Made by a program: the position numbers and the translations under genes. The notes under the pieces were generated by a model. The model was given only the letters and a program-made list of their open reading frames with translations, was not told the origin of the DNA and made no database searches. DNA of 64,000 bases from an uncultured Chloroflexia bacterium (GTDB lineage: Bacteria; Chloroflexota; Limnocylindria; Limnocylindrales; CSP1-4), in NCBI GenBank assembly GCA_963767945.1, contig CAVYGH010000011.1, forward strand, positions 98,896-162,895. The letters run 5' to 3'. Positions 36,435 to 64,000 of the stretch are shown piece by piece. Each line of letters begins with the position of its first letter. Position 1 is the first letter of the stretch.

Positions 36435-36890
36435 TCAGCCACCGCTGGCCACACGGTCCCGCCGGGCGAACTCGTCGAGCGCGCGGCGGCACTCGTCGGC
36501 GGCACGCTGGGCCTGGCTGACGATCCAGGGATCCACCCGGCTCGAGTCCTCGATGGTGACCGTCGGGCCGGACGGCCCGTCGTCGAGGACGATCCCCGAC
36601 GCGTTCCGGTAGTCGGTCATCCAGTTGGCCTGGAGCGCGATCAGCGCGTCGGTCACGACCGCCCGCGTGAACAGCCAGTCGGTCCACGCCGCGTTGAGCC
36701 GGTCGACGACGTCGTCGAGGCGGATCGGCCGGCCACGTTCGAGGCGGGCGACGAGGTCGATGACGCGCACGGCCGCGAACGGGTCGCCGGTCTCGGCGAT
36801 CGTCGGGGGCTGGATCCGCGGGTCGGGGAGGCCGGTCGGGGCGGGGCGCCGGTCGTGCGTCCCGGGCTCGACGGTCGTCGGGGTCGTCAT
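36435..36890 (-). CDS. Hypothetical protein (151 aa), possibly winged-helix-like, upstream of rhodanese
   Basis: GC3-rich ORF, ordered-looking core GDPFAAVRVIDL..WTDWLF..LQANWMTDYR. Confidence 0.7.
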   Translation of the reverse strand: MTTPTTVEPGTHDRRPAPTGLPDPRIQPPTIAETGDPFAAVRVIDLVARLERGRPIRLDDVVDRLNAAWTDWLFTRAVVTDALIALQANWMTDYRNASGIVLDDGPSGPTVTIEDSSRVDPWIVSQAQRAADECRRALDEFARRDRVASGG

Positions 36891-36893
36891 CGC

Positions 36894-36918
36894 ATATCCG
36901 AGCGGAAAAGTCGGGATT
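36894..36918. promoter_or_regulatory. Rrf2/IscR-like 25-bp operator (copy 1)
   Basis: Minus strand AATCCCGACTTTTCCGCTCGGATAT between -10 TAGCCT and ATG. Confidence 0.7.
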
Positions 36919-37082
36919 GGAAGGCTAGCACAGCGATCCGGCGCTGGGAACCGGGACGAGCCGGCGCGTTTCAGGTAGCCCGTCAGGTCGTCGTCAGGCA
37001 CCCGCCCGATGGAGCAACCGGGCCGCGGATCGATGCTGCGGTCATCGCCGGAGGTACCGGCCAAGCCCCGAGGAGTGGACCG

Positions 37083-37292
37083 ATGCATGCAGATGCGATG
37101 TACGAAGAGGCGACCGCGAGGATCGCCGAGCACCACGCCTACGCCGCCCGGCAGCGCCTGGCGAACGAGGCTCGCGAGGCCCGCAAGCAGGCCATGGGCG
37201 CCGAGACCGATCCGTCGTTGCTGGACCGGATCCTGACGGCCCTGCGCAACGCCGCCAAGCCGGCGTCGCGGCCCACGACCGGAACCGCGTGA
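37083..37292 (+). CDS. Small hypothetical helical protein (69 aa)
   Basis: GAGGAG RBS, MHADAMYEEATARIAEHH..RQRLANEAR. Confidence 0.6.
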   Translation: MHADAMYEEATARIAEHHAYAARQRLANEAREARKQAMGAETDPSLLDRILTALRNAAKPASRPTTGTA

Positions 37293-37369
37293 TCGGGTGC
37301 GACCGCAAGCGCAGGACGCGCGGGCGGTCGCACCCCTTCAGCTTCGGGTCGGTCGGGCTGTCCGACCCG

Positions 37370-38221
37370 CTACAGGAGCCCCGGATTGGGCAGCTTGTGC
37401 AGCGGGTCGACGAGGTCGGCGGACGACGCCATGTACTGGTCCCGGTCGACGACCAGGAACCGGCGCTCCAGGAGGGCCTGGAGCAACGGGTTGGGCCCGG
37501 GGATGACGGCGTGGACCGGGCCGCCGCGGCCCGTGCGTCGGAGGGCCTCGAGGGCGGGGCCGACGAGGTCCGCGTCCGGCCGCACGACGAGTCGATCGAG
37601 CGCCCGGGCCTCGGACGCCTGGCGGGCGCGACCGTAACCCACGGCGACAGGCCCGGCGCGGTCGGACACGAGGAACGGATCGGCGTCGGCCTGCGTGGCC
37701 CAGAACTCGTGGTCGACGGGGCGGAACGCGCCCGTCCACGCCCGCTCGAGCTCCGCGAGCTGTGCCGGCTCCGCGGGCTCCACGTCGAGTCCGGGCTGGG
37801 GCTCGATCCCGCTCGACGGGCCGTCGAGATACAGGCACACCCAGCGCGGCGACATCCCGGCCCGCGCATACAGCGGCAGCGCCCGCGGATCGTCGGAGGC
37901 GAACGTCGTCCGGTTCGTCGTCCCCTCGTACAGCGCCGTCAGCAGCGGCCGGCCGATGCCCTGGCCCAGGCGGTCCGGCGCGACGAACAGGTCGCCCAGC
38001 TGGGCGGCGACCACGGCGTCGACCACGGCGCCGTACGCGACCAGGACGCCGTCGATCGTCGTGACCAGCGCCCGGTGGTGCGCGATGAGGTGGCGGACGT
38101 ACGGCCCGACGATGTCGGCGCCGTCGATCGGTCCGTCGTTGTGGTACGCAGCGAGCAGCCGGCGGATCGCCGGCAGGTCGTCGACCGTCGCGGACCGGAT
38201 CTCGGGCTCGCCGGCGATCAG
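37370..38221 (-). CDS. GNAT family N-acetyltransferase
   Basis: IRSATVDDLPAI, LGDLFVAPDRLGQGIGRPLL, ALPLYARAGM; the only coupled start seen is CTG overlapping the upstream TGA. Confidence 0.8.
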   Translation of the reverse strand: MIAGEPEIRSATVDDLPAIRRLLAAYHNDGPIDGADIVGPYVRHLIAHHRALVTTIDGVLVAYGAVVDAVVAAQLGDLFVAPDRLGQGIGRPLLTALYEGTTNRTTFASDDPRALPLYARAGMSPRWVCLYLDGPSSGIEPQPGLDVEPAEPAQLAELERAWTGAFRPVDHEFWATQADADPFLVSDRAGPVAVGYGRARQASEARALDRLVVRPDADLVGPALEALRRTGRGGPVHAVIPGPNPLLQALLERRFLVVDRDQYMASSADLVDPLHKLPNPGLL

Positions 38222-39420
38222 GTGCCCCTTCCGGCCCGCGGCCCGCGGTTGTAGCGCGCCAGCACGTCGAGCAGCCGCTCGTGGTCGAGGGCATGCGCCG
38301 TGATCCCGTCGCGGCCCGTCAGCGTCTCGGCCGCGAGCAGCGCGTTCACGACGGCGGCCTCGGTCGCCTCGACGGTCGCCTGGAAGAGCGGCGTCATGCG
38401 GTCGTCGAGCACCATCCGCACGTCGTGGGTCACGGGCGCGCCGTCGCCGGCCTCGTCGGTCGTGGTGAGTCCGCGGTTGCCCGTCGCGAACGCCAGGACG
38501 AGGTCGCCCGACGAGTGGTTGGCGGTGCTGCCCATGCGGGCGAGGCCGAGCCCGGCGCGCTGCGCGAGCCGCTCGCACTGGTGCGGCAGCAGCGGCGCGT
38601 CGGTCGCGACGATCACGATGATCGAGCCGGCCCCGGGCTCGGCCCTCGGTCCGCGGCCGGCCGCCTGCGCCGCCACCCGGACCACGTCGACCGCCGCTGC
38701 CTGCGCGTAGGGCGTCGGGACCGCGGTCGCCGGCAGCTCGATGCCGACCGGGACGCCGTCGACGCGCAGCTGCTCCCGCTCGCCGTAGTTCGCCTGGACG
38801 AGCACGCCGACCGTCCAGCCGCCGGCCGCGACCGCGACGACCCGCGACGCCGTGCCGATCCCGCCCTTGAACTCGTGGCAGACCATCCCCGTCCCGCCGC
38901 CGACGTTGCCCTGTTCCACCGGCCCGTCGTGCGCGCGGGCGATCGCGGCATCGACGTGCGCCGGCCGGACGTGGAGGCCGTCGATGTCGTTGAGCAGGCC
39001 GTCCCACGTCTCGCCAACGACCGGCAGCGACCACAGCCCGCCGCCCTTGCGCCGGTGGGCGATGGCGTTCGCGACGAGGGCGTCGCGGACCACGCCCACG
39101 CTGTGCGTGTTGGTGATCGCGACCGGCCCGCCGAGCAGTCCCGCCTCGCGGATCCACTCCAGGCCGGTGAGCTCGCCGTTGCCGTTCAGACGGTGGCAGC
39201 CGGCGAACACGGGCTCGGCCCAGACGTCGCCGTCGTGGGGCATGACGACGGTGACGCCGGTCCGGATAGGCCCCCGCCCGACTTCGAGCTCGCCGTCGCC
39301 CTCGATCAGCGTCTCGTGGCCGACGCGCAGGCCCCGCACGTCGGTGATCGCGTCGTGCTCGCCCGGCTCGAGGCGACCGATGCGGATCCCGAGCTCCCGA
39401 GCGGGCACGTTCCCTCCCAT
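38218..39420 (-). CDS. P1/S58 family peptidase (DmpA/BapA-like)
   Basis: AITDV.G..VGH, RTGVT, NGNGELTG, TNTHSVG, PVVGETWD, GGGTGM, QANYG, GSII, SGD..LAF. Confidence 0.92.
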   Translation of the reverse strand: MGGNVPARELGIRIGRLEPGEHDAITDVRGLRVGHETLIEGDGELEVGRGPIRTGVTVVMPHDGDVWAEPVFAGCHRLNGNGELTGLEWIREAGLLGGPVAITNTHSVGVVRDALVANAIAHRRKGGGLWSLPVVGETWDGLLNDIDGLHVRPAHVDAAIARAHDGPVEQGNVGGGTGMVCHEFKGGIGTASRVVAVAAGGWTVGVLVQANYGEREQLRVDGVPVGIELPATAVPTPYAQAAAVDVVRVAAQAAGRGPRAEPGAGSIIVIVATDAPLLPHQCERLAQRAGLGLARMGSTANHSSGDLVLAFATGNRGLTTTDEAGDGAPVTHDVRMVLDDRMTPLFQATVEATEAAVVNALLAAETLTGRDGITAHALDHERLLDVLARYNRGPRAGRGT

Positions 39421-39463
39421 ACGGTGCGACGCCGGTGCGGTGCGGCCCCCATATCATCGCCTC

Positions 39464-40912
39464 GTGTTCAACTTGCCGGAGGCCCGTCTCGCGCGCCGCG
39501 GCGCCCGCGTGGCGACGCGGGTGGCCGCGCTCGACCGGGTCGCGCCCATGGACGCCGCGGAGGCCTTCCGCGACCTGCCGGGCCTCGCGCTGCTCGAGAG
39601 CGCGCGCCCCGGCCGGACCGGCCGCTGGAGCTACCTGGCGGCCGACCCGCTGGCCGTGGTCGACGCCCCGGCCGACGGGCCAGACCCGTTCGCCGAGGCG
39701 AGGTCGATGCTGGCGCGCATGGCGGATCGCGATCGCCCCGACGGCGAGCCCGCCCCGGCGGTGCCCCCGTTCGCCGGCGGGCTCGCCGGGTTCCTCGGCT
39801 ACGACCTCGGCCGGCGGTTCGAGCGGATGCCGTCGATCGCCCGGGTCGACCAGCACCTGCCGGTGCTCCGGCTCGCGCTCCACGACTGGGTGCTCGCCTG
39901 GGACCGGCGCAACGGCGAGGCGTGGCTGGCGGCGCGCGTGGTGGACGGCGATGGGCGGCGGCTCGATCGTCGCCTGGCGGAGGTCGGCGCCCGCATCGGC
40001 GCGCTCGTGCGAGGGGAGGTCGCACGCGCCACCCCGGTGACCGACGACGTGCCCGCGGCGTTCGCCTCGCTCACGCCGCACGACGGCTGGTTGCGGGACG
40101 TCGAGGCGGTCCGCGACGCGATCGGCCGCGGCGAGATCTACCAGGCGAACCTCACCCGCCGGCTGTCCGCCCCGTACGCGGGCGAGCCGTGGCCTGTCTT
40201 CCGGCGCCTCCGGACCGGCGACCCGGCCCTGTTCGCGGGCTTCCTCGATCTCGGTCCCTCGCCCGCCACGGGCACGCCGCGGGCCCTGCTGTCGGCCTCG
40301 CCGGAGCCGTTCCTGTCGGTCGGCGCCGACGGCGTGGTCTCGACCGACCCGATCAAGGGCACGCGCCCGCGCGGACGGACCCGGGAACAGGACCGGGCCC
40401 TCGCCCGCGAGCTGCTGGCCAGCCGCAAGGACCAGGCCGAGAACGTGATGATCGTGGACGTGCTGCGCAACGACCTCGGTCGCGTCTGCGAGCCCGGCTC
40501 CGTGCAGGTTCCGCGTCTCCTGCGACTCGAACGCACGGCCGCCGTCCAGCATCTCGTCACGACGGTGACCGGGCGCCTCCGCTCCGACGCCGATGCCTTC
40601 GACCTGCTGGCGGCCGCGTTCCCCGGGGGCAGCATCACGGGCGCCCCGAAGATCCGGGCGATGGAGCTCATCGAGCGCCTCGAGCCGGTCCGTCGCGGGC
40701 CGTACTGCGGGTCGATGCTGTGGCTGGGCCCCGACGGGCGGATGGGGTCATCGATCCTCATCCGGACCTTCGTCGCCGACGGCGAGCGGCTGACGCTCCA
40801 CGTCGGCGGCGGGATCACCTGGCGCAGCGATCCCGAGGAGGAATGGGACGAGACCGTCGCCAAGGCGCGCGGGCCGCTGTCGTCGATCGGGGCCGTCGAG
40901 GCCGAGGCGTGA
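39464..40912 (+). CDS. pabB: Aminodeoxychorismate synthase component I
   Basis: LLES, GFLGYDL, GEIYQANL, SASPE, PIKGTRPR, ENVMIVD..RNDL, FPGGSITGAPK, SSILIRT. Confidence 0.88.
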   Translation: MFNLPEARLARRGARVATRVAALDRVAPMDAAEAFRDLPGLALLESARPGRTGRWSYLAADPLAVVDAPADGPDPFAEARSMLARMADRDRPDGEPAPAVPPFAGGLAGFLGYDLGRRFERMPSIARVDQHLPVLRLALHDWVLAWDRRNGEAWLAARVVDGDGRRLDRRLAEVGARIGALVRGEVARATPVTDDVPAAFASLTPHDGWLRDVEAVRDAIGRGEIYQANLTRRLSAPYAGEPWPVFRRLRTGDPALFAGFLDLGPSPATGTPRALLSASPEPFLSVGADGVVSTDPIKGTRPRGRTREQDRALARELLASRKDQAENVMIVDVLRNDLGRVCEPGSVQVPRLLRLERTAAVQHLVTTVTGRLRSDADAFDLLAAAFPGGSITGAPKIRAMELIERLEPVRRGPYCGSMLWLGPDGRMGSSILIRTFVADGERLTLHVGGGITWRSDPEEEWDETVAKARGPLSSIGAVEAEA

Positions 40913-41820
40913 CGGCCGGCGGCGGGCCGGGCCACGTCTGGGTGAACGGCGCGCTGCTCGCGGCCGATGAGCCGCACCTCTCGGCGTTCGACCGCGGCTT
41001 CCAGCTCGGCGACGGCATCTTCGAGACGCTCCGCGTGCGCGGCGGCCACGTCACCGAGCTCGCGGAGCACGTCGCCCGGCTGCGGGGCTCGGCCGATGGG
41101 CTGGGCATCGAGCTGCCCGACGCCCTCGAGCGGATGGTCCCCGCCGCCATCGCGGAGCTGCTCGCGGCGGAGGGCCTGGGCGGCCCTGACGGGGACGCCT
41201 CGGTCCGGATCACCGTCTCGCGCGGGTCGTGGGCGTCGCGGGGACTGCTGCCGCCGCGGAACGAGCGGCTGCAGGCGACGATCGTGATCCAGGCCTGGCC
41301 CGTCGTGCCGCCGCCCGCGGACCACCTCGAGCGTGGCCTGTCGCTGGTGGCCTCGTCCGTGCGCCGCGATCCCCGGAACCCGATCGTGACGCTCAAGACC
41401 ACGAGCCGCGCGGACTACGTCTTCGCCCGCCTCGAGGCCCGCGGCGAGGGCGCCGACGACGCCCTGTTCCTCACGCTGTCGGGCACCCTGTCGGAGTCGA
41501 CGACCGCCAACCTGTTCCTCGTCCGACGGGCGGCCGACGGGGTCACCGAGCTGGCGACGCCGTCGCTCGACTGCGCGATCCTCCCGGGCACGACCCGGTC
41601 GTGGCTGCTCCGCTGGGCCGATGGCGCCGGCCTCCGGGCCGTCGAGGCGTGGCTGACGCCCGACGACCTCGCCGGTGCCGACGAGGCGTTCCTCTGCTCC
41701 TCGGTCGCCGGCGTGCTGCCGGTCACCCGCTTCGGCGGCCGCCCGATCGGCGGCGGCGTGCCGGGTCCATGGACGCTGCGCGCGCGGGCCGACCGGGAGG
41801 CGTTCATCGCGGACGGCTGA
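40909..41820 (+). CDS. pabC: Class IV aminotransferase / aminodeoxychorismate lyase
   Basis: DRGFQLGDGIFET, H.ARL, RITVSRG, LKTTS, ESTTANLF, ILPGTTR, DEAFLCSS; coupled to pabB. Confidence 0.8.
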   Translation: MTAGGGPGHVWVNGALLAADEPHLSAFDRGFQLGDGIFETLRVRGGHVTELAEHVARLRGSADGLGIELPDALERMVPAAIAELLAAEGLGGPDGDASVRITVSRGSWASRGLLPPRNERLQATIVIQAWPVVPPPADHLERGLSLVASSVRRDPRNPIVTLKTTSRADYVFARLEARGEGADDALFLTLSGTLSESTTANLFLVRRAADGVTELATPSLDCAILPGTTRSWLLRWADGAGLRAVEAWLTPDDLAGADEAFLCSSVAGVLPVTRFGGRPIGGGVPGPWTLRARADREAFIADG

Positions 41821-41845
41821 TCCGGCGTGGGCAGCGTGATCCCGC

Positions 41846-42454
41846 TCAGGTCGCCGCGTCGGCCGAGCGGGCGGTGCCGGTGAGCTGCGGCAGGCGCCGG
41901 CCCGCGGCACAGGCCTCGACGAGCTGCTGCAATCGCCGCTCCCGGGTCTCGGGGCGCTTCGCGCTCATGACCCAGGTCGTCCCGAGCCGGCGGTAGCCCC
42001 TGGGCTGCGCCTCCCAGAACGCCCAACCGTCCGCGTCGGCTCGCAGGGCCGCTTCGGCCGCATCGTCGAACGCCCAGCTCCCGTCGAACGAGTAGATCGC
42101 GGTCCGGTCCTCGCGCCGGGCGGTGAACGCCGCCTCGCCCGCGGGCCGCATCCGGCCCTCGGCACGCAGCGCCTCGACCCGCGCCACGTTCCGGGCGCTC
42201 CAGTTGCTCCCCGTCCGGCGCGGCGTGATCCGCTGCGCCGAGCCGCCGTCCACCCGCTTGCGGATGCCGTCGATCCAGCCGACGCACAGCACCTCGTCGA
42301 CGATCTCCTCCCACGTCACCGACGGCAGCCCGGTGGCCTTCGGACGCGTGCCGACCCACTTCTCGGGTGCCGTCGCGTGGTGCTCGGCGAGCCAGTCCCG
42401 GAGCTCGCCCGCAGACTCGAACCAGCCGATGTCGTGCGGCGTCAGGTCGACCAT
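41846..42454 (-). CDS. YdeI/OmpD-associated family protein
   Basis: LRDWLAEHH, LCVGWIDG, TPRR.GSNWS..N, AKRPETRERR. Confidence 0.88.
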   Translation of the reverse strand: MVDLTPHDIGWFESAGELRDWLAEHHATAPEKWVGTRPKATGLPSVTWEEIVDEVLCVGWIDGIRKRVDGGSAQRITPRRTGSNWSARNVARVEALRAEGRMRPAGEAAFTARREDRTAIYSFDGSWAFDDAAEAALRADADGWAFWEAQPRGYRRLGTTWVMSAKRPETRERRLQQLVEACAAGRRLPQLTGTARSADAAT

Positions 42455-42506
42455 GCCGACAGGCTACCGTCCGGCCGGCGGACCGGGCCTCGGTAGACTC
42501 GGACGC

Positions 42507-44392: not shown

Positions 44393-44403
44393 CCGGTTCG
44401 GAC

Positions 44404-44868: not shown

Positions 44869-44963
44869 GCCGGGAGTTTCGCCCGAGACGCCGCCGTCGA
44901 GGAAGTCCCAGGGCGACAGGACCTTCTGGCCACCGGGCACCGTCGCGTCCGGCCGGGGCGACC

Positions 44964-45987: not shown

Positions 45988-45994
45988 GCGCGCC

Positions 45995-46876: not shown

Positions 46877-46901
46877 ATTTCCGAGCGTGGTGCTAGGATT
46901 T
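46877..46901. promoter_or_regulatory. Rrf2/IscR-like 25-bp operator (copy 2)
   Basis: ATTTCCGAGCGTGGTGCTAGGATTT overlapping -10 TAGGAT of the DUF59 gene. Confidence 0.6.
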
Positions 46902-46908
46902 CTCGACG

Positions 46909-47238
46909 ATGACCGATACGCAGGACGCTCCCGCGACCGAAGCCGCGCCGTTCGACGCGCAGCGGCGCGCCACCGAGCTCGCGATCCTCGACGCGCTGCG
47001 CGCCGTCGTGGACCCCGAGATCGGCATGAACGTCGTGGAGCTGGCGCTGATCAAGCAGATCATCCTCGGCCCCGATTCGACCGAGATCAAGATGATCCTC
47101 ACCACCCCGTTCTGCCCCTACGCCGGCGCGATGATCCAGCAGGTGACCGAGCAGGCCGAGAGCGTGGTCGATCATCCGGTCAAGGTCACGCTGCTGGCCG
47201 AGCGCTGGGACCCGCGCGACGCGGGCCTGATGTGGTGA
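46909..47238 (+). CDS. Metal-sulfur cluster assembly factor (DUF59/SufT/PaaD-like)
   Basis: ALRAVVDPEIGMNVVELALI, MILTTPFCP. Confidence 0.9.
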   Translation: MTDTQDAPATEAAPFDAQRRATELAILDALRAVVDPEIGMNVVELALIKQIILGPDSTEIKMILTTPFCPYAGAMIQQVTEQAESVVDHPVKVTLLAERWDPRDAGLMW

Positions 47239-47251: not shown

Positions 47252-47923
47252 ATGACGCGCTCGACCCTCTCGTTCGACAGCGCCGTGGCGACGGGGCGCG
47301 GCGACGACGGCACGACCGGGCTCCTGTTCGGCGGCGATCGCGTGCGCAAGGACGACCTGCGGACCGAGGCCTACGGCACGGTCGATGAGGCCGTCGCCTG
47401 CCTCGGCGTCGCCCGCGCCGACCTGGGCGTGCGGGCGCAGCTCGGCGTGCTGTCCGCGAACTTCGGCAGCCTGTCCGACGTGATCCTGCGGCTGCAGCGC
47501 GAGCTGTTCACCGTGGGCGCCGAGCTGGCCACCAACCCCGACAACCGCGACCGCCAGCAGGACGGCGCCACGCGCGTGTCGCGCGAGATGGTCGACGGGC
47601 TTGACGCGCTGGTGCGCGAGACCGAGGCCGCGATCGAGCTGCCGCGCGAGTTCGTGGTGCCCGGCGAGACGCGCGTCAGCGCCTCCCTCGAGGTGGCCCG
47701 GACCGCGGTCCGCCGCGCCGAGCGCCGGACCGTCAGCCTCGCCGCCACCGACGCCGCGATCGCCGACGGCCTCGTCCTCCCCTACCTGAACCGTCTCGCC
47801 GACCTGCTCTGGATCCTCGCCCGCGTGGCCGAGCAGGCTGAGGCAAAACCGTCCACCATGGCGCGGGCCTCGAAGGCACGCGGCCGATCGAACGCGGCAG
47901 CGCCCCAAAGGAGCGAATCGTGA
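47252..47923 (+). CDS. PduO-type cob(I)alamin adenosyltransferase
   Basis: TGRGDDGTT.L, AYGTVDE, FVVPG, ARTAVRRAER, YLNRLADLLW..AR. Confidence 0.92.
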   Translation: MTRSTLSFDSAVATGRGDDGTTGLLFGGDRVRKDDLRTEAYGTVDEAVACLGVARADLGVRAQLGVLSANFGSLSDVILRLQRELFTVGAELATNPDNRDRQQDGATRVSREMVDGLDALVRETEAAIELPREFVVPGETRVSASLEVARTAVRRAERRTVSLAATDAAIADGLVLPYLNRLADLLWILARVAEQAEAKPSTMARASKARGRSNAAAPQRSES

Positions 47924-48654
47924 CCGATCAGACGACCACCCGACCCCCGCTGCCCCCGTCGCAGGCGCCGCTGTCGCCGTCGCAGCTCGGCGTCCGGCCG
48001 GCGCCGGCGCTCGTCCAGCAGCTGCTCCTCGGCGCCTTCGGCTGGATGTTCGCCGGCCTCCTGCTGACGGCCGGCATCGCCTACCTCGTCGGCGGCAACC
48101 AGCAGATCATCGACACCGTCGGCCAGTACTGGTTCCTGATCGCGATCGGCCAGTTCGCCCTGGCGATCGGCATCCAGGGCGCGATCAACCGGATCTCGCC
48201 CACCGCGAGCCTGGGGCTGTTCTTCGTCTACGCCGCGTCGATGGGCTTCACCATCGCGCTGATCGTCAGCTTCTACACGACCGCGTCCGTCGCGTCGGCG
48301 TTCTTCTCCGCGGCGGCGATGTTCGGGGCGGCGGCGGTCTACGGCGCCGTCACCAAGCGCGAGCTCGCGAAGCTCGGCGGCATCCTGTTCATGGGCCTGA
48401 TCGGGATCCTCGTCGCGTCGGTCGTGAACATCTTCCTCGGCTCGGGACCCGTCGGGTGGGTGATCGCGGTCATCGGCGTCGTGCTGTTCACCGCCCTCAC
48501 CGCGTACGACGTCCAGCGCATCACGCGCGGCGACTACGCGGCGTTCGCGGGCTCGATCGAGCGGGCCTCGATCATCGCGGCGCTCCACCTGTACCTGGAC
48601 TTCATCAACCTGTTCCTGTTCCTGCTCCGCATCTTCGGGGCGGGCCGGAACTAG
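47920..48654 (+). CDS. Bax inhibitor-1/YccA family membrane protein
   Basis: WMFAGL..TA, YGAVTKREL, LTAYDVQ, ALHLYLDFINLFLFLL. Confidence 0.92.
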   Translation: MTDQTTTRPPLPPSQAPLSPSQLGVRPAPALVQQLLLGAFGWMFAGLLLTAGIAYLVGGNQQIIDTVGQYWFLIAIGQFALAIGIQGAINRISPTASLGLFFVYAASMGFTIALIVSFYTTASVASAFFSAAAMFGAAAVYGAVTKRELAKLGGILFMGLIGILVASVVNIFLGSGPVGWVIAVIGVVLFTALTAYDVQRITRGDYAAFAGSIERASIIAALHLYLDFINLFLFLLRIFGAGRN

Positions 48655-55880: not shown

Positions 55881-56028
55881 GCGACCCCCGGGCGTCGTCG
55901 CGATCCGGGGCCTCGACCGCTTCGCGAGCGCGTTCCACCGACCGCGTTGATCCGGTCGCGGGTGCGCGGACCCGAGGGAGCCGGGTTGCGCACTCCCTCG
56001 GGGCCTCGATCGGCCGAACCGATCGGCG

Positions 56029-57728: not shown

Positions 57729-57937
57729 GGGCTCCCTGACCTGTGATCGCGGCGACCACCTGTCGCCGTCACCAGCCTTGTCGGTCCTGATGCGCGGCCG
57801 GTTCCACCTTCGCGCCGGACACGTCCCGCAATCAGCGCCCACCGCGTGTGACGCGCGGCGGCTCGGGAGCCGCCAGCATGCGTCATCGGCGACCCCGCTG
57901 ACGCCCCCCCAACCGGGTCCCCATCGGCGAAGGCTCG

Positions 57938-57967
57938 TTGACGCTTCGGCGAGGTCGGGACTAGACT
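57938..57967 (+). promoter_or_regulatory. Sigma70-type promoter of rrf2-sufC-sufS
   Basis: TTGACG-N18-TAGACT. Confidence 0.7.
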
Positions 57968-57968
57968 C

Positions 57969-57993
57969 AATCCCGACGAAATCGCTCGGAATT
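57969..57993. promoter_or_regulatory. Rrf2/IscR-like 25-bp operator (copy 3)
   Basis: AATCCCGACGAAATCGCTCGGAATT directly after the -10 element. Confidence 0.75.
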
Positions 57994-58072
57994 ACCGGCC
58001 CCCGTCGCCCCGGCGACGCCGAGCATCCGGCCCGGGCACCGTCCGCAGCTCGACCCGACGAGGACCCTTGCC

Positions 58073-58567
58073 CTGACCACGCGCGCGACCTTCCACGGAT
58101 CCGGCGCCGTCGCCTTCAGCACGAAGGGCGAGTACGGCGTCCGGCTCATGGTGCAGCTCGGCCGCCGCTACGGGACGGGACCCGCGAGCCTCGCGGAGAT
58201 CGCGCTGGACGAGGACCTGCCGCGCGCCTACCTGGAGCAGCTCGTGACGAGCCTCCGCGACGCCGGCCTGGTCGTCTCCACCCGCGGCGCCCGGGGCGGC
58301 TACGAGCTCTCCCGGCCGCCCGAGCAGATGACGATGAGCGAGGTGCTGCGCGCCCTCGAGGGCCCGCTGCAGCCGATGATCTGCGTCACCGACGACCCCG
58401 CGCACATCGCCTGCGACCGCTCGGCCCGGTGCACGGTCAACGTGCTCTGGGTGAAGGTCCGCGACGCGATCGCCGGCACCCTCGACTCCATGACCCTCGC
58501 CGACCTCGTCCCCCAGCGCCACATCGAACTCGACCCGCACCCCACGCTCACAGGAGCCACTTCGTGA
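58073..58567 (+). CDS. Rrf2 family transcriptional regulator (IscR-like, three Cys)
   Basis: [31 protein letters not shown]-x9-C-x5-C; start uncertain (CTG 58073 after GAGGA). Confidence 0.9.
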
Positions 58568-59445
58568 CCGACGCCAACGACCGCGAGCTCGTCATCCGCG
58601 ACCTGCAGGTCGCCCCCATCGCGAGCCCCGATCACGAGATCCTCCAGGGGATCGACCTCACGATCCGCAAGGGCGAGACCCACGCGATCATGGGGCCCAA
58701 CGGGTCGGGCAAGACCACGCTCGCCTATGCGCTGATGGGGCACCCGGCGTACATCGTGAAGTCGGGCAAGGTCACCTGGAAGGGCTACGACCTGCTCAAG
58801 CTGTCGCCGGACAAGCGGTCGCGGCTGGGGCTGTTCCTCGCGTTCCAGTACCCGACGGCGATCCCGGGGCTGTCGGTCGCGTCGTTCATCCGGAGCGCGG
58901 TCAACGCGAAGCTCCAGGGCATCGACAAGAACCCCGACGTCGACCCCACGGACTCGCTGCGGGGCGGCATCTCGATGCTCGACTTCCGGCGCAAGATGCG
59001 CGAGAAGATGGCGCTCCTCAAGGTCGAGGACAGCTTCGCCGCGCGGTACGTGAACGACGGCTTCTCGGGCGGCGAGAAGAAGCGGCTCGAGATGCTCCAG
59101 ATGGCGATGCTGGAGCCCGAGTTCGCCGTCCTCGACGAGACCGACTCGGGGCTGGATATCGACGCGCTCCGGATCGTGGCCGAGGGCGTCAACGCGATGC
59201 TCAACCCGGACATGGGCGTGCTGCTGATCACCCACTACCAGCGGCTGCTCAACTACATCACGCCCGACTACGTGCACGTGCTGGCCGCCGGCCGGATCGT
59301 GACCTCGGGCGGCAAGGACCTCGCCCTCCGGCTCGAGGAGGAGGGCTACGGCCCGATCCTGCGCGAGAACGGGCTCGAGACCGACGTGCCCGACGAGGCG
59401 CTGGCCGTCCCCCAGGAGCCCGAAGCGGCCGCGGCCGGCCGATGA
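58564..59445 (+). CDS. sufC: Fe-S cluster assembly ATPase SufC
   Basis: [58 protein letters not shown]. Confidence 0.96.
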
Positions 59446-60737
59446 CGACGGTGACCCGGCCCGGGTCCGACACGGCCGTCCCGACGGCGATCCGGTCGTC
59501 CGACCCGATCGATCCGGAGCGCCTGCGCGAGCAGTTCCCGATCCTCGACCAGGAGATCCACGGGCACCCGCTGGTCTACCTCGACTCCGCGTCGACCTCG
59601 CAGAAGCCGCAGGTCGTGCTCGAGGCGATGGACACCTACTACCGCCAGTACAACGCGAACGTCCATCGCGGGATCTACACGATCGGCGAGAAGGCGACCG
59701 CGGAGTACGAGAAGGCCCGCGCGAAGGTGGCCCGCCTGGTCGGCGTGGCCGATGCCCACGAGATCGTGTTCACGCGCAACGCGACCGAGGCGATCAACCT
59801 CGTCGCCTACTCGTGGGGCCGCAAGCACATCGGCCGCGGCGACGTGATCGTGCTGACCGAGATGGAGCACCACGCGAACCTCGTCCCGTGGCAGCTGCTG
59901 GCCCAGGAGAAGGACGCCGACCTCGAGTTCATCCCGATCACCGACGACGGGATCCTCCGCCAGGACGTGTTCGACGTCCTGCTCAAGCTCAAGCCGAAGC
60001 TCGTCGCGTTCACCCACGTCTCGAACACGCTGGGCACGATCAACCCGATCGAGGACATGACCCGCCGGGCGCACGACGCCGGCGCGCTGGTCCTGATCGA
60101 CGGCGCCCAGGCCGTGCCGCACGTGCCGGTCGACATCGCGGCGATCGGCTGCGACTTCTACGCGTTCAGCGGCCACAAGATGCTCGCGCCCACGGGCTCG
60201 GGCGCGCTGTGGGGCCGCCGCGAGCTGCTCGAGGCGATGCCCCCGTTCCTCGCCGGCGGCGAGATGATCCGCGAGGTCCATCTCCGCCGGTCCGAGTTCA
60301 ACGAGATCCCCTGGAAGTTCGAGGCCGGCACGCCGGACATCTCGGGCGCCGTGGGCTTCGGGGCCGCGGCCGACTACCTCCGCGACCTGGGCATGGACAA
60401 CGTCCGCGAGCACGAGCGCGAGCTCGTCGAGTACACGCTCGAGGTGCTCCCGCGCGAGGTGCCCTCGATCGAGCTGTACGGGCCGCCGGCCGACGTCCGC
60501 GGCGGCGTGGTCCCGTTCAACATCCCGGGCGTGCACCCGCACGACGTCGCGCAGGTCCTCGACCGGTTCGGCATCGCGATCCGCGCGGGGCACCACTGCA
60601 CGATGCCCCTCCACGAACGGCTCGACCTGGCCGCGACCGCTCGCGCGTCGTTCGGCGTCTACACGACGAAGTCGGACATCGACGCCCTCGCCGGCGGCCT
60701 GCGCGAGGTCGTGAAGCTGTTCGGCGTCGGGGGCTAG
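59442..60737 (+). CDS. sufS: Cysteine desulfurase SufS
   Basis: [39 protein letters not shown]. Confidence 0.96.
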
Positions 60738-60774
60738 GGCCTCCAGCACATCGTCGCCGCGCCGCCCTGGGCAG

Positions 60775-61248
60775 CTACGCGTCGCGCACGCGCAGATAGG
60801 TGTCGATGCCGGCCCGCCGGGCGATGGGGCGCATCGGGCCGAGGGCCTTGGCGGCATCCTCGAACCCGACGACCAGCGGGTCGCCGACCGGCCAGTCGCG
60901 GCCCTTCCAGGTGAGGCTCGCGCCGCCCGCTGCCAGGACGTTCTGCGTCCACTGGGTGGAGGGCCCGAACGGCATCGGGATGATGAATCCGCCCTCCGCC
61001 CGCAGGGCGACGACCGGCGTGCGCCGGACCGTGCCGGTGGTGCGCCCACGATGCTCGAGGACCGCCCACAGCGGGAAGATCCGGCGGCCGGCGAGCGGTC
61101 GGGCGAGGCCCATCGTGGCGAGCGAGATCCGGTGCATGACCGACGGTGGGCGCGGCGCGGGCTGGGAGGCGGGTCGGGTGGCAGTCGAGGGTTCCATGTC
61201 GCCAGCATCGGGCTCCGGGCCCGGGTCGTCATCGCGGATGGCGGTCAC
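60775..61248 (-). CDS. Deazaflavin (F420)-dependent nitroreductase family protein
   Basis: LEHRGRTTG..RRTPV, FG..TQWTQNVLAAG; start uncertain. Confidence 0.78.
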   Translation of the reverse strand: MTAIRDDDPGPEPDAGDMEPSTATRPASQPAPRPPSVMHRISLATMGLARPLAGRRIFPLWAVLEHRGRTTGTVRRTPVVALRAEGGFIIPMPFGPSTQWTQNVLAAGGASLTWKGRDWPVGDPLVVGFEDAAKALGPMRPIARRAGIDTYLRVRDA

Positions 61249-61288
61249 CCTCCATCACGGATTCCCGTGAGCCGGACCTGCACAGGCC

Positions 61289-62380
61289 TCACGCGACGCC
61301 CCGACGCAGGGCCCAGGCGGTCGCGTCGGCGCGGCCGCGGGCGTCGATCTTGCGGTAGACGTTGGACACGTGGCGCTCGACGGTGTTCACGCTGATCCCG
61401 AGGCGCGCCGCGATCTCGGCGTTGGACTCGCCGCCCGCGACCGCGGCCAGCACCTCGAGCTCGCGCGGCGTGAGACCGCCCGGCCCGGCCGATCCGGGCG
61501 CCGGAGCCTCGCGCGACCGGCGGGCCGGGCGCTCGGCATGCGCGTGTGCGGGCGCCGCGGTCGAGGGTGCCAGGGCGAACGTCGCGATCCGCTCGGCGAC
61601 CTGCTCGGGATCCTCGAAGAACAGGCTGGCCGACGTGCCCGGCAGGAGCTCGAGCCGGGCGTCCGGGAGGGAGGCCGCGAGCTCGCGTGACAGCTCGAGC
61701 GGGATCACCGACGCGCCGGCCCGATGGAGGACCAGGACCGGGCACGAGATCGACGGCAGCTCGGGCCGCACGTCGATCGCACTCGCCTCGCGCATCGTCG
61801 CCCGCGCGATCGCCGGCGTCGTCGCGGTCCGGAACCACTCCGTCGCCAGGCGACCGACCTCCGGATCGGGCCAGCCGAGCCAGGCGTGCGCCGCCGACTC
61901 CACGAACGTGTCCCAGTCCTGGTCGATCAGGCTGAGCAGCGCCTGGGTTCCGGGCCCGCTCATCGGACCCCAGCCGCGCGCGGAACCCCCGAACAGCACC
62001 AGGCCCGCGGCCCGGGACGGGTGGCGAGCGGCCCACGCGAGCGCGAGCATCACCGAGTGGTAGAAGCCCAGCAGCACGACGCGCCCGACCCGCTCGGCGT
62101 CGAGCACCGCGTCGAGGTCCAGCAGCATCGCGTCCAGCGAGAGGTCGTCGACGTCGCGCTGCGACTGGCCGGAGCCGCGACCGTCGTACTGGAGGAACCG
62201 GGTCCGCGCGCCGAGCTGCCCGAACGCGCGCTGGAGGAGCGGGATGCGCCACTCGGCCGCCGTGTTGCTGAACGGCACGCCCGGCATCAGCACCACGACC
62301 GGACCGCCGGCCGTCCCCGACACCCAGTACGCGATCTGGACGCCGTCATTGGTCCGGGTGCGGCGCGGGGCGGGCTCCAT
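61289..62380 (-). CDS. Alpha/beta-hydrolase-fold sensor fused to LuxR HTH
   Basis: DGVQIAY, YDGRGSGQS, CPVLVLH; LTPRELEVL..G.SNAEIA..L.IS.NTVERHVSNVYRKI. Confidence 0.9.
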   Translation of the reverse strand: MEPAPRRTRTNDGVQIAYWVSGTAGGPVVVLMPGVPFSNTAAEWRIPLLQRAFGQLGARTRFLQYDGRGSGQSQRDVDDLSLDAMLLDLDAVLDAERVGRVVLLGFYHSVMLALAWAARHPSRAAGLVLFGGSARGWGPMSGPGTQALLSLIDQDWDTFVESAAHAWLGWPDPEVGRLATEWFRTATTPAIARATMREASAIDVRPELPSISCPVLVLHRAGASVIPLELSRELAASLPDARLELLPGTSASLFFEDPEQVAERIATFALAPSTAAPAHAHAERPARRSREAPAPGSAGPGGLTPRELEVLAAVAGGESNAEIAARLGISVNTVERHVSNVYRKIDARGRADATAWALRRGVA

Positions 62381-62439
62381 GGCGAGATCGTCGCGCAGCC
62401 GGGCCTGTCGCGTCGAGCTCGCTCGACCCCATTCCGGCT

Positions 62440-62464
62440 AATCCCGAGTCCGCTGGTCGGAATT
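62440..62464. promoter_or_regulatory. Rrf2/IscR-like 25-bp operator (copy 4)
   Basis: AATCCCGAGTCCGCTGGTCGGAATT over the -35 region of sufU (-10 TACACT at 62477). Confidence 0.72.
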
Positions 62465-62493
62465 AGACCCGCGCGCTACACTCCGAAACGAGC

Positions 62494-62892
62494 ATGGACG
62501 ACCTCTATCGCGACTACATCCTCGAGCACTACCGGCAGCCCCACAACTTCGGTGTGCTCGATCAGCCGTCCGCCACCTACGAGGGCGCGAACCCCCTGTG
62601 CGGCGATCGGATCACGATGCAGCTGGCGGTGCGCGACGGCGTGGTGAGCGACGTGGGCTTCACCGGCCGGGGATGCGCGATCAGCCAGGCCTCGGCGTCG
62701 CTGCTCACGGACGAGATCAAGGGCAAGCCCGTCGCCGACGTGGCGGGCTTCGGCGCCTCGGACCTGCTCGACCTGCTGGGCATCGAGATCAGCCCCGCGC
62801 GCCTCAAGTGCGCGATGCTCAGCTTCGACTCCCTCCAGCACCTGCTCGACGAGGTCGGCGCGAAGCCGCTCCTCGCGCAGGAGGCCAGCTGA
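62494..62892 (+). CDS. sufU: SufU/IscU-type Fe-S assembly sulfur-transfer protein
   Basis: ILEHYRQPHNFG, NPLCGD, GCAISQASAS, RLKCA. Confidence 0.9.
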   Translation: MDDLYRDYILEHYRQPHNFGVLDQPSATYEGANPLCGDRITMQLAVRDGVVSDVGFTGRGCAISQASASLLTDEIKGKPVADVAGFGASDLLDLLGIEISPARLKCAMLSFDSLQHLLDEVGAKPLLAQEAS

Positions 62893-63012
62893 TGGGCCGC
62901 TGCGCCTGTCGCCGGCCGGCCTGAGCCGGCACCTCTCCTCCCCGGGCGTCGACCCCGTCGCCCGGCGTGACCTGACCTTTCGCCCGTCGAACACCGGAGC
63001 ACCCTTCCACCG

Positions 63013-64000
63013 ATGCCCAAGACCTATGCCGAGCTCCTCCGCTCCGCCCGCGAGGAGATCCCCGAGATCTCGCCCGCCGAGACGGACGCCCTGCGCCAGC
63101 GTGGCGGCGTGGCGCTGATCGACGTCCGCGAGGCGTCCGAATGGGACCAGGGCCACGTGCCCGGCGCCGCCCACGTCTCGAAGAGCTACATCGAGCAGGA
63201 CATCGAGGCGGCCGCGCCCGACCGGGACGCGCCCGTCGTGCTGTACTGCGCGGGCGGCATCCGCTCGCTGTTCGCCGCCCAGACCCTGGCCGGCATGGGC
63301 TATGCCGACGTCCGGTCGATGAAGGGTGGGTTCCAGGCCTGGAAGAGCCAGGGCCTCGAGTGGACCCAGCCCGTTCGCCTGACGGACGAGCAGAAGACCC
63401 GCTACAGCCGCCACCTGCTGATCCCCGAGGTGGGCTCGGCCGGGCAGGCGAAGCTGCTCGAGTCGAAGGTGCTCCTGATCGGCGCCGGCGGTCTGGGCGC
63501 ACCCGCGTCGTTGTACCTGGCGGCCGCGGGCGTCGGCACGCTCGGGATCATCGACTTCGACGTCGTCGACCTGTCCAATCTCCAGCGCCAGATCATCCAC
63601 ACGACCGACCGCGTCGGCGAGAAGAAGGTCGAGTCCGCGCGCAAGACGCTGACGGCGCTCAACCCCGACGTGAAGGTCGTCGCCCACGAGGAGATGCTGG
63701 TCGCCGACAACGTCGACCGGATCATCGAGGGCTACGACGTGGTCCTCGACGGGACCGACACGTTCGAGACCCGCTACATCCTCAACGACGCCGCGGTCGC
63801 CGCCGGGATCCCGGTCGTGCACGCGTCGGTGTTCCGGTTCGAGGGCCAGCTGACCACGTTCGTCCCGTACGAGGGCCCGTGCTACCGCTGCCTGTACCCG
63901 ACGCCGCCGCCGCCCGAGCTCGCGCCCGGCTGCTCGGTCGCCGGCGTGCTGGGCGTGGTGCCCGGGATCATGGGCCTGCTCCAGGCGAACGAGGTCCTCA
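63013..64000 (+). CDS. moeB: Rhodanese-MoeB/ThiF adenylyltransferase fusion (MoeZ-like), runs off window
   Basis: IDVREASEW..GHVPGA, LYCAGGIRS, then RYSRHLLIPEVG..GQ, GAGGLG, DLSNLQRQ, CYRC, PGIMG. Confidence 0.92.
   Translation, partial: MPKTYAELLRSAREEIPEISPAETDALRQRGGVALIDVREASEWDQGHVPGAAHVSKSYIEQDIEAAAPDRDAPVVLYCAGGIRSLFAAQTLAGMGYADVRSMKGGFQAWKSQGLEWTQPVRLTDEQKTRYSRHLLIPEVGSAGQAKLLESKVLLIGAGGLGAPASLYLAAAGVGTLGIIDFDVVDLSNLQRQIIHTTDRVGEKKVESARKTLTALNPDVKVVAHEEMLVADNVDRIIEGYDVVLDGTDTFETRYILNDAAVAAGIPVVHASVFRFEGQLTTFVPYEGPCYRCLYPTPPPPELAPGCSVAGVLGVVPGIMGLLQANEVL

Follow-up and report, generated by a model that had tools for sequence, protein, structure and literature searches.

A predicted Rrf2-type regulon of SUF and sulfur-supply genes marked by 25-bp palindromes in an uncultured Chloroflexota bacterium

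Results and Discussion

Genes and palindromes of the window

The window, that is the whole stretch of 64,000 nucleotides that was analysed, belongs to an uncultured Chloroflexota bacterium (Ca. Limnocylindria) with a genome of 3.98 Mb and a GC content of 72.5%, the assembly being 80% complete. Four 25-bp palindromes had been claimed in it by a sequence-only reading, and all four were found at the claimed coordinates with the letters as claimed. The gene content assigned to them was likewise borne out: the 151-aa protein and rhodanese, an OsmC gene divergent from DUF59/SufT-PduO-BI-1, Rrf2-SufC-SufS and SufU-MoeZ/MoeB. The features are listed below, where the bit scores of the predicted operators are those of the matrix trained on the four sites themselves.

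35382..36248, minus strand: two-domain rhodanese of the thiosulfate sulfurtransferase type (Pfam Rhodanese, 113.5 bits, 2 stretches)
36435..36890, minus strand: unknown 151-aa protein (AlphaFold2 model, pLDDT 86.9)
36894..36918, no strand assigned: predicted operator 1, reading AATCCCGAC-N7-CTCGGATAT on the minus strand (30.2 bits)
36922..36930, minus strand: candidate extended -10, TGcTAGCCT, 3-4 nt before operator 1
46877..46901, no strand assigned: predicted operator 2 (31.8 bits), the sufT ATG lying 7 nt downstream
46909..47238, plus strand: DUF59/SufT-like Fe-S assembly protein (PF01883, 48.8 bits)
47252..47923, plus strand: PduO-type cobalamin adenosyltransferase family protein (PF01923, 160.7 bits)
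47920..48654, plus strand: BI-1/YccA family membrane protein (PF01027, 171.5 bits)
57938..57967, plus strand: rrf2 promoter TTGACG-18-TAGACT (promoter scan: 1 found, 0.0 expected)
57969..57993, no strand assigned: predicted operator 3, read as autoregulatory (33.9 bits)
58073..58567, plus strand: Rrf2-family regulator, 164 aa (PF02082)
58564..59445, plus strand: SufC ATPase (TIGR01978, 317.9 bits, cut-off 212.8)
59442..60737, plus strand: SufS cysteine desulfurase (TIGR01979, 580.7 bits, cut-off 475.1)
62440..62464, no strand assigned: predicted operator 4 (30.9 bits), at the -35 position relative to TACACT
62494..62892, plus strand: SufU sulfur-transfer protein (TIGR01994, 111 bits, cut-off 92.5)
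63013..64000, plus strand: rhodanese-ThiF adenylyltransferase/sulfurtransferase of the MoeZ/MoeB type (NF006444, 560.6 bits, cut-off 449)

Rarity of the palindromes

A degenerate 25-mer allowing up to 3 mismatches matched at these four places alone in the window (8 matches strand-wise), while 100 shuffled windows gave a mean of 0.61 and a maximum of 4 matches and none reached 8. The GC-rich core alone also gave 8 matches in the window, a number equalled by 7 of 100 shuffles and hence non-significant; the AT-rich ends therefore supply the specificity of the site in this 72.5% GC genome. The genome of 3.98 Mb was then scanned with a log-odds matrix trained on the four window sites, which themselves score 30.2-33.9 bits. 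Six sites exceeded the maxima of five local whole-genome shuffles (16.6-21.7 bits), namely the four training sites and two independent ones at C9:691655 (27.6 bits) and C7:116837 (23.1 bits); the next-best match stood at 17.3 bits. The rarity expected of a true operator is thus seen genome-wide, with two extra sites above shuffle level. The first independent site lies on another contig in the sufB-sufD promoter, so the matrix reaches a fitting target beyond its training sites. The second is located between convergent genes, with no fitting target gene there.

Position of the sites relative to promoters

In all cases with a readable promoter, the site lies over or directly beside the -35 region, the -10 or the transcription start, and the -35 and -10 hexamers are conserved together with the operator while the spacers vary. 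At sufB the site overlaps the tool-called promoter TTGACG-17-GATAAT. At rrf2 both hexamers are kept in 22 genus loci while the spacer between them varies, and operator 3 starts 2 nt past the -10, which puts the likely transcription start inside it. The right arm of operator 2 holds a candidate extended -10, TGcTAGGAT (46891-46899), and TGgTAGGAT is invariant in the site-anchored sufT alignment; the strict promoter scan called no promoter at this operator. The same scan called none at operator 4, where a conserved TACACT (62477-62482) precedes the sufU ATG at 62494, and none at operator 1, whose distance to the downstream ATG of the 151-aa protein gene is 3 nt. The extended -10 before operator 1 is conserved in the site-anchored alignment of site-bearing loci and is kept as a candidate because the strict scan did not call it. 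The earlier claim of promoter overlap or abutment at every site is accordingly tool-confirmed at rrf2, one of the four window sites, and outside the window at sufB; for the other three window sites, where the strict scan found no promoter, it draws on conserved hexamers.

Genes behind the sites

The 151-aa protein has no Pfam or NCBIfam family and no atlas match. In the AlphaFold2 model three helices form a winged-helix-like bundle, accompanied by a beta hairpin and a long helix at the C-terminus, and a Foldseek search with this model gave only weak matches (best E 4e-3) to PadR/Pex/MarR regulators. The rhodanese gene, with its ATG at 36248, follows 187 nt downstream. Operator 1 is conserved in 12 of the 29 genus loci which hold the 5' end of the 151-aa protein gene. 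Sites scoring 21.6 bits or more are present at 11/12 loci with the rhodanese behind and at 0/15 loci without it, and the rhodanese was found nowhere at E <= 1e-40 in the 5 genomes that have none at this place. Operator 1 tracks the rhodanese behind the 151-aa protein gene and not that gene itself.

The SufT-like protein falls below the cut-offs of the NCBIfam SUF_assoc and SufT models. The pduO gene stands behind sufT in 29/30 genus loci, in 13/13 loci of the class and in 0/16 loci of other classes; the BI-1 gene follows pduO in 27/30 genus loci and is confined to one family (f1, 4/4 loci). PduO is thus a class-wide partner of SufT and BI-1 a partner within the family only. The best reading of this arrangement is that a class-specific sufT-pduO(-BI-1) operon would also belong to the regulon.

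The sufU gene is the sole NifU_N-family gene found in the 80% complete assembly. Sites of 17.5 bits or more lie at sufU in 11/18 genus loci when the gene is split from sufS and in 1/12 when the two are contiguous, so that a separate sufU site occurs mainly where sufU has parted from sufS. The moeZ gene (MoeB/MoeZ models, 560.6 and 368.3 bits) extends past the window end and is followed by a ThiS-family gene (52.4 bits), cysM (cysK/M subfamily, 332.8 bits, slightly below the cut-off of 344.15) and a JAB gene (Prok-JAB, 41.8 and 28.3 bits, two frames). A thiocarboxylate pathway of cysteine synthesis is described for Mycobacterium tuberculosis, in which CysO, CysM, Mec and MoeZ act as ThiS-family carrier, CysM-type synthase, JAMM/JAB protease and rhodanese-ThiF activating enzyme. 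All four gene types expected for this pathway are encoded together here. MoeZ had been read as a relay of sulfur into Suf; it would fit better into a thiocarboxylate cysteine module made up of moeZ, cysO, cysM and JAB, while the other part of that claim, an Rrf2-controlled split Suf system with a rhodanese, is supported.

Conservation of the sites in relatives

Thirty genus relatives were compared together with the genome itself. The site pattern occurs 1-6 times per genome in 31/31 genus genomes, and the reversed-pattern control occurs in none of the 31. The site was found upstream of rrf2 in 22/23 genus loci (the sole miss being cut by a contig end), of sufB in 29/30 (the miss being the 3' half of a split match) and of sufT in 29/30 (the miss being a 3' fragment), the relatives being kin, so that these counts overstate the independent support. 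A sample of the phylum covering many Chloroflexota families showed the order site-rrf2-sufC in 30/30 best loci, 24 of which come from 8 families outside the order; their sites score 20.8-34.3 bits with the matrix trained on the window alone. The sister family holds a site of 19.6-26.9 bits in 5/7 loci. The sites are thus kept upstream of orthologues, as had been predicted, throughout the genus and for rrf2 also across the phylum. Genomes with an Rrf2 orthologue (n=5) carry 6, 3, 1, 5 and 1 sites and genomes without one (n=5) carry 0, 0, 1, 2 and 0, a small and weakly discriminating comparison in which both sets were hand-picked and the reversed-pattern controls gave 0-2.

The regulator protein

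The regulator is placed in the Rrf2 family by PF02082 (126.8 bits, cut-off 30, covering positions 1-131 of the 132 in the profile) and by the TIGR00738 superfamily model (118.4 bits, cut-off 73.3). Its reading frame has no canonical in-frame start codon; the start is a CTG placed 8 nt past GAGGA (58060-58064), and both GAGGA and CTG are conserved. Residues Cys104, Cys114, Cys120 and Glu20 are invariant in 24/24 orthologues, these being the ones that a pattern extracted from 30 loci, so that the protein is a three-cysteine Rrf2 in every one. The candidate cluster ligands, as read from the protein sequence, are the three invariant cysteines and the glutamate. This glutamate lies four residues ahead of an arginine, the spacing of the Asp8-Arg12 pair of NsrR (available text of PMC5411485).

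The IscR equivalogs reject the protein (TIGR02010, 91 bits against 207.55; NF008110, 71.6 against 275), as do the CymR equivalog NF047409 (130.2 bits, cut-off 195) and the Xanthomonas-type SUF regulator model TIGR02944 (68 bits against 110.65). As it falls below all three kinds of equivalog cut-off, membership of a family does not allow a function to be carried over to it. The genome encodes at least two further Rrf2 paralogues (32-34% identity), located at C7 and C5.

Proposed circuit and alternative explanations

The positions, rarity and conservation described above point with good probability to an Rrf2 repressor that senses clusters, controls its own operon and governs a scattered SUF regulon together with sulfur-supply genes, with the four palindromes and the sufB-sufD site as its predicted operators. 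Which protein binds, whether it represses and what it senses are inferred from these observations. A search for RNA data gave no usable set, the largest word share being 0.09 among runs that are kept only as contigs. A dimer of the regulator would occupy each 25-bp site, one subunit on each half-site AWWYCCKAS, and since each site lies on or beside a -10, a transcription start or a -35, the bound dimer would block RNA polymerase; the regulator would thus repress its own operon and the other units. An Fe-S cluster would most likely be held by the three invariant cysteines, with the invariant N-terminal glutamate of the other subunit as a possible fourth ligand. When clusters are plentiful the holo-protein would bind, and when they are scarce or damaged the regulator would leave the DNA and the whole set would be induced. 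The proposed regulon consists of rrf2-sufC-sufS, sufB-sufD, sufT-pduO-BI-1, sufU-moeZ-cysO-cysM-(JAB) and the 151-aa protein gene with the rhodanese, and would join the SUF machinery to genes of sulfur and cysteine supply.

It is conceivable, if rather unlikely, that the same Rrf2 protein binds the sites in the manner of CymR and senses cysteine or sulfur supply rather than cluster status, the signal possibly arriving by way of thiol chemistry on the cysteines or of a partner protein, for example a cysteine synthase. CymR is the best NCBIfam model for the regulator (130.2 bits, against 91 for IscR), the CymR structure 2y75 (106.3 bits) comes near the best PDB match 4cic (110.3 bits), and the rhodanese and moeZ-cysO-cysM here, like the cysE-cysK pair that follows a site of 24.7 bits in a relative, would suit such a role. 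However, the score remains below the CymR cut-off of 195, and in the alignments both CymR chains show a gap where they face the Cys-rich stretch of the regulator, whose three cysteines and glutamate are invariant in all 24 orthologues and in many families. The core of the regulon is moreover SUF (rrf2-sufC 30/30, sufB 29/30, sufT 29/30).

The palindromes might instead be bound by another protein, either an Rrf2 paralogue or the 151-aa protein, the local Rrf2 being merely a target; this appears improbable. The paralogues at C7 and C5 would be available, and the 151-aa protein is winged-helix-like in its model, has weak PadR/MarR matches and carries a site at its own gene. That gene, however, has the site in 12/29 genus loci and only with the rhodanese behind, whereas throughout the phylum this Rrf2 orthologue alone constantly accompanies the site (30/30), and the operator layout fits the one published for Rrf2 proteins (available text of PMC6599224).

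That the palindromes are transcribed RNA hairpins or remnants of a small mobile repeat is hardly credible. The 9-base arms are able to pair, and, provided that the -10 elements are correctly assigned, the transcripts of rrf2 and of the 151-aa protein gene would open with the site. However, among 91 distinct sites 322 arm pairs deviate; 271 of them do so on one side only, and 250 of these break pairing against only 36 compensated. The site overlaps the -10 at sufB and sufT and so is not wholly transcribed, the arm sequence itself is kept across the phylum beyond pairing, the spacers differ among sites with no flanking similarity in the alignments, and positions 34000-64000 gave no Rfam match.

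Comparison with known systems

The cluster-sensing repressor proposed here finds a close parallel in IscR of E. coli and P. aeruginosa, likewise an Rrf2-family winged-helix regulator with three cysteines, whose sites lie on core promoter elements and whose gene heads an Fe-S assembly operon under its own control. In IscR it is the holo-form that represses, as would be expected of the present regulator. The Type-1 site of IscR (ATASYYGACTRWWWYAGTCRRSTAT), a palindrome of 25 bp, lies on the promoter of the operon that IscR heads; AT-rich ends, shoulders of CC/GG and a GAC-N7-GTC core are common to the IscR consensus and the tpx site (available text of PMC6599224). The layout of the predicted operators matches this published consensus, as had been anticipated, in equal length, AT-rich ends and a GAS-N7-STC core, with one of them on the rrf2 promoter, and the window operator resembles the footprinted tpx site of P. 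aeruginosa (same source). The cluster ligands of IscR are C92, C98, C104 and H107 (available text of PMC6599224). The regulator, in contrast, has the spacing C-X9-C-X5-C and an invariant N-terminal glutamate; three residues after its last cysteine stands an asparagine, and never a histidine in the 24 orthologues. The operon also differs from an isc operon (iscSUA), as the regulator is followed by sufC and sufS and the one U-type gene found in the 80% complete assembly is SufU.

The best solved match is PDB 4CIC, a BadM/Rrf2 family regulator (110.3 bits, E 9.2e-31, nearly full length), which is similarly acidic from the first to the second cysteine position and has a histidine aligned to the invariant glutamate. 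We take this entry to be the IscR of Thermincola potens. The existence of such a structure is mentioned in the available text of PMC5411485. CymR of Bacillus subtilis and Staphylococcus aureus, the second-best PDB match, controls genes of cysteine and sulfur metabolism, some of them shared with this regulon; unlike CymR, the present regulator has suf genes as its core targets.

SufR of cyanobacteria and actinobacteria is a dedicated, autoregulated and cluster-bearing suf repressor, but it belongs to another protein family with another Cys motif and the operator CAAC-N6-GTTG (available text of PMC8593673), and is a functional analogue only. The RisR protein of Myxococcus xanthus is a three-Cys Rrf2 regulator whose holo-form represses suf through a GAC-N7-GTC-type palindrome over the promoter; RisR governs both isc and suf, and its motif as printed differs from the window operators in the shoulders (available text of PMC9973013). 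The same source states that Rrf2 genes beside SUF genes (groups IS2-IS5) arose several times and are mostly untested. The proposed circuit would thus be of a familiar kind, met here in a little-studied group of soil bacteria.

Results

The sequence-only reading had proposed that an Rrf2 regulator encoded in the window co-regulates a dispersed set of sulfur and Fe-S genes. This interpretation was supported by independent comparative evidence, namely the rarity of the site, its presence at sufB, its conservation and its neighbourhood with rrf2. The four 25-bp palindromes that had been claimed were all recovered, each with the position and sequence given to it, and the gene calls were borne out by Pfam and NCBIfam at all four window loci.

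Palindromes (proposed operators 1-4) and genes of the window loci, window positions, gene products by Pfam and NCBIfam
36894-36918, operator 1: unknown 151-aa protein (36435-36890, minus strand), then two-domain rhodanese (35382-36248, minus strand)
46877-46901, operator 2: DUF59/SufT, PduO-type adenosyltransferase-family protein and BI-1/YccA protein, with OsmC divergent from them
57969-57993, operator 3: Rrf2 regulator (58073-58567, plus strand), then SufC and SufS
62440-62464, operator 4: SufU, then rhodanese-ThiF protein (MoeZ), with two minus-strand genes inserted ahead, after SufS

Rarity of the proposed operator

The GC-rich core alone gave eight matches in the window at one mismatch or fewer, a count equalled in 7 of 100 shuffles and hence not significant, because the DNA is so GC-rich (the host assembly has 3.98 Mb in 22 contigs, 72.5% GC and 80% completeness). 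Taken whole, AT-rich ends included, the 25-mer matched only the four sites at up to three mismatches, and this count was reached in none of 100 shuffles. A log-odds matrix was trained on the four window sites, both strands. The training sites scored 30.2-33.9 bits, and the scan of the 3.98-Mb assembly returned two extra sites of 27.6 and 23.1 bits, the next-best match being 17.3 bits. The maxima in five locally shuffled genomes were 16.6-21.7 bits. Since the genome scan and the shuffles both show rarity, the frequent and random matches that the earlier reading had named as speaking against it were not seen; beyond the training sites, only the two extra sites stood above the shuffle maxima.

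The best independent match (27.6 bits, contig C9), which is absent from the training set, lies inside the tool-called promoter TTGACG-17-GATAAT, 83 bp 5' of sufB, and sufD follows sufB. With the window units, this site means that the SUF system is divided among four or more transcription units, located on two contigs, with the palindrome on every unit. The only U-type gene found in the assembly is SufU.

The sixth site (C7:116837-116861; positions 5038-5062 of slice L002; 23.1 bits) is flanked by an MFS gene and a cyclophilin gene that converge on it with their 3' ends. No target gene is evident there, and a tblastn search for TerC or CysE genes found none in this assembly. Beside the site is a stretch richer in AT that contains an 8-bp inverted repeat, and a similar spacer occurs at the TerC-fronting site of a relative.

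Conservation of the proposed operator in the genus

The degenerate pattern at one mismatch or fewer occurred in 1-6 copies per genome in all 31 genus genomes, and the reversed-pattern control in none of the 31. Conservation upstream of orthologues, which had been proposed as a check, was observed at rrf2, sufB and sufT.

Upstream site at genus loci
rrf2: 22 of 23 loci; the sole miss begins 134 bases into its contig
sufB: 29 of 30 loci; the one exception comes from a match split in two, of which it is the 3' half
sufT: 29 of 30 loci; the sole miss is a 3' fragment

At the two remaining window loci the site varied. Where sufU directly follows sufS (12 of 30 loci), just one locus had the site, and it was weak (17.9 bits); where sufU stands apart from sufS, as in the host genome, 11 of 18 loci had a site scoring 17.5 bits or more, about 30 bp ahead of the ATG. 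The gene for the 151-aa protein had the site in 12 of the 29 genus loci containing its 5' end. With the rhodanese behind it (12 loci) the site scored at least 21.6 bits in 11 and 10.3 bits in one, and at the 15 loci with full flank and no rhodanese it was present in none. In five genomes lacking the rhodanese at this locus, none was found elsewhere at E <= 1e-40. Because the sites at sufU and at the 151-aa gene vary with the sufS split and with the presence of the rhodanese, the operator tracks operon break-points and the gene for sulfur transfer rather than the 151-aa gene itself.

In the relative G009 (slice L158, 1404-1469) the rhodanese is reduced to a 22-residue C-terminal remnant beside the 151-aa gene, and the operator is absent; the locus looks like a rhodanese deletion accompanied by loss of the operator. 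Whether or not the operator is present, the 151-aa gene is conserved, occurring in 29 of the 31 genus genomes. The N-terminus of its product is rich in proline and modelled at low confidence; the remainder is modelled confidently as a fold of three helices, a beta-hairpin and a long helix. It bears a weak likeness to PadR/Pex/MarR winged-helix regulators; Foldseek returned no PDB match at E <= 0.001 and the protein atlas no usable match. The winged-helix assignment is therefore no more than a lead.

In this genome (60775-62380) as in its closest relative, two minus-strand genes stand between sufS and sufU: one has a weak F420H2-quinone-reductase-like match, and the other encodes a fusion of an alpha/beta hydrolase with a LuxR-type HTH. 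The start of the latter gene is 60 nt from operator 4, divergent from sufU, and the operator might be shared between the two.

Wider members of the predicted regulon

Downstream of moeZ, outside the window, lie three genes (slice L302, C11:161300-169300, local 1853-3565): a ThiS-family gene encoding a product with Gly-Gly and two further residues at its end, a cysteine synthase gene of the cysM type and a JAB/JAMM gene (L302 3154-3565). All three are probably cotranscribed with sufU. Of six relatives checked, two keep the order sufU-moeZ-cysO-cysM-JAB, one has it broken by 2.5 kb, and three have sufU-moeZ-JAB only. Together with moeZ, the three genes match the set for the thiocarboxylate cysteine pathway familiar from mycobacteria. 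The sequence-only reading had proposed a rhodanese/MoeZ sulfur relay; the sufU-moeZ pair held as a target of the site, and the thiocarboxylate cysteine gene set explains MoeZ better than a relay into Suf. The JAB gene here lies in two overlapping frames (N part L302 3154-3300, C part 3221-3565) and is a single frame in six relatives, which points either to a frameshift in the gene or to a mistake in the assembly.

Among the relatives G019 and G004, two genomes have the operator ahead of a gene for a TerC-family membrane protein, in one case with a TTGACG -35, and one genome has it ahead of cysE-cysK (serine acetyltransferase-cysteine synthase); in relatives it also fronts an aldehyde dehydrogenase gene. 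The TerC and cysE-cysK sites extend the regulon toward metal export and cysteine synthesis. In the sufT operon, PduO follows SufT at 29 of 30 genus loci, 13 of 13 class loci and none of 16 loci of other classes, and BI-1 comes next only within the family.

The Rrf2 regulator and its link to the site

An alignment of Rrf2 orthologues was searched against 151 Chloroflexota genomes and gave a match at E <= 1e-20 in 127 of them, a tally that includes one unpublished genome, which none of the results depends on. The best 30 loci, of which 24 represent eight families from beyond the order, all had their top matrix match within about 3.4 kb just 5' of rrf2 (20.8-34.3 bits), and sufC followed rrf2 in all 30. 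Sister-family genomes are 1.0-1.4 Mb in size, and 5 of 7 loci there carried a site scoring 19.6-26.9 bits. It is mainly because this neighbourhood of site and rrf2 is constant that the window Rrf2 is named as the binder. Five genomes with an orthologue had 6, 3, 1, 5 and 1 sites (reversed-pattern control 0, 2, 0, 1 and 2), and five without had 0, 0, 1, 2 and 0 (control 2, 0, 0, 0 and 0); this small phyletic test on hand-picked genomes points weakly in the same direction, orthologue with sites.

No ATG, GTG or TTG was found in the rrf2 frame ahead of the conserved N-terminus, and at window 58060-58075 a genus-conserved GAGGA is followed after 8 nt by CTG. Because a canonical start is absent and this arrangement is conserved, the CTG at 58073 is the likely start of a 164-aa product. 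A canonical start is also absent in four of five representatives of the host's family; orthologues of other families have ATG or GTG 12-15 nt ahead of the STKG motif.

Cys104, Cys114 and Cys120 (C-X9-C-X5-C) and Glu20, which is four residues ahead of an Arg, were invariant in the 24 orthologues extracted by pattern from the 30 loci. In NsrR the partner subunit supplies the fourth cluster ligand, Asp8, which pairs with Arg12 (PMC5411485); by analogy we infer that Glu20 corresponds to Asp8. The third residue past the last Cys is Asn, whereas IscR has His at that position. NCBIfam recognised the protein as Rrf2 with no equivalog cut-off reached (CymR 130.2 against 195, IscR 91 against 207.55). 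The nearest solved chain was 4CIC (110.3 bits), followed by CymR chains and then E. coli IscR (about 56 bits).

Promoter arrangement and nature of the operator

The site had been described as overlapping or abutting a promoter element. This stood at rrf2, where the strict scan called a promoter in the window, and also at the C9 sufB site; at sufT, the 151-aa gene and sufU the strict scan called none, so the promoters there are tentatively assigned from alignment. Across 22 aligned rrf2 loci, GTTGACG, a variable spacer and TAGACT are followed after 1-2 bases by the operator, which therefore spans the likely transcription start. At sufB the -10 lies within the operator. At sufT the right arm is an invariant TGgTAGGAT, by its form a putative extended -10, and since the ATG is 7-8 nt further on, the leader would be very short or absent. 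At the 151-aa gene, TGcTAGCCT lies 3-4 nt ahead of the operator. At sufU a conserved TACACT or TATAGT occurs 12-13 nt past it, which would place the right arm at the -35 position. All five arrangements suggest repression by promoter occlusion. The largest word share among 24 RNA runs was 0.09, all of them in contig form, which does not reveal transcription starts.

A palindrome in these positions could also act as an RNA hairpin. Among 91 distinct sites pooled from all sets, 322 arm positions were off consensus; 271 deviations were one-sided, of which 250 break pairing, and 36 were compensated. C5, C6 and A8 are conserved at 93-97% across the phylum in the same sites, and an Rfam search of 34000-64000 returned no family. 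Rrf2 proteins form dimers, and this pattern of deviations is the behaviour expected of two half-sites read by a dimer rather than of an RNA hairpin. A mobile-repeat origin was rejected, as the spacers differ and the flanks are unrelated between sites.

GC-rich hairpins, kept in the genus, lie right after the operators in the rrf2 leader (57994-58045) and the sufB leader (slice L001, 5026-5070). The 3' side of the rrf2 leader hairpin is similar to an operator half-site. No compensatory change was seen in any of its pairs; covariation evidence is absent because the outer stem never varies.

Discussion

The regulon is unusually clean and dispersed. On the comparative evidence, the window Rrf2 very probably binds the predicted sites and is quite likely to act there as a repressor, with an Fe-S cluster as a reasonably probable signal. 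In the most likely mechanism, holo-Rrf2 would repress by promoter occlusion, and the holo-repressor would thereby provide negative feedback on Fe-S supply.

A broader joint reading is offered tentatively and is rather doubtful as a whole. The regulator would represent a Chloroflexota-wide, SUF-dedicated Rrf2 lineage between IscR and CymR, with its cluster held by three Cys and, in the manner of NsrR, by a carboxylate that the partner subunit contributes. Fe-S assembly would be tied to a CysO-type thiocarboxylate cysteine pathway and to rhodanese; the PduO-type protein (in the Limnocylindria class) and BI-1 (in one family) would be true Fe-S homeostasis factors, not passengers of the sufT operon; and the conserved CTG start in the host's family would throttle the amount of repressor.

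For one large, mostly uncultured phylum the analysis gives a concrete predicted operator, promoter geometry and regulon, in which operator copies track operon break-points and SUF is linked with genes of sulfur and cysteine supply. The SufT operon partners PduO and BI-1 are unexpected and conserved, and may have a role in Fe-S metabolism. No published description of such a circuit in Chloroflexota was found in the literature searched; it may already be listed in the supplementary tables of PMC9973013 or in curated databases of regulons. A review (PMC8593673) states, in the section concerned, that suf regulation is unknown in most SUF-only bacteria without SufR, and the text of PMC9973013 bearing on Rrf2 genes that adjoin SUF genes groups them and calls most of them untested.

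By analogy the proposed circuit is of a known kind, because the IscR Type-1 and RisR systems share its features. In M. xanthus, suf and isc are repressed from a GAC-N7-GTC palindrome by the holo-form of RisR, an Rrf2 protein with three Cys (PMC9973013). PMC6599224 prints the consensus for IscR Type-1 sites together with a P. aeruginosa site mapped by footprinting, and states that only cluster-bound IscR represses from such sites; these sequences match the window sites in their length of 25 bp, in having AT-rich ends and CC/GG shoulders, and in their GAS-N7-STC core.
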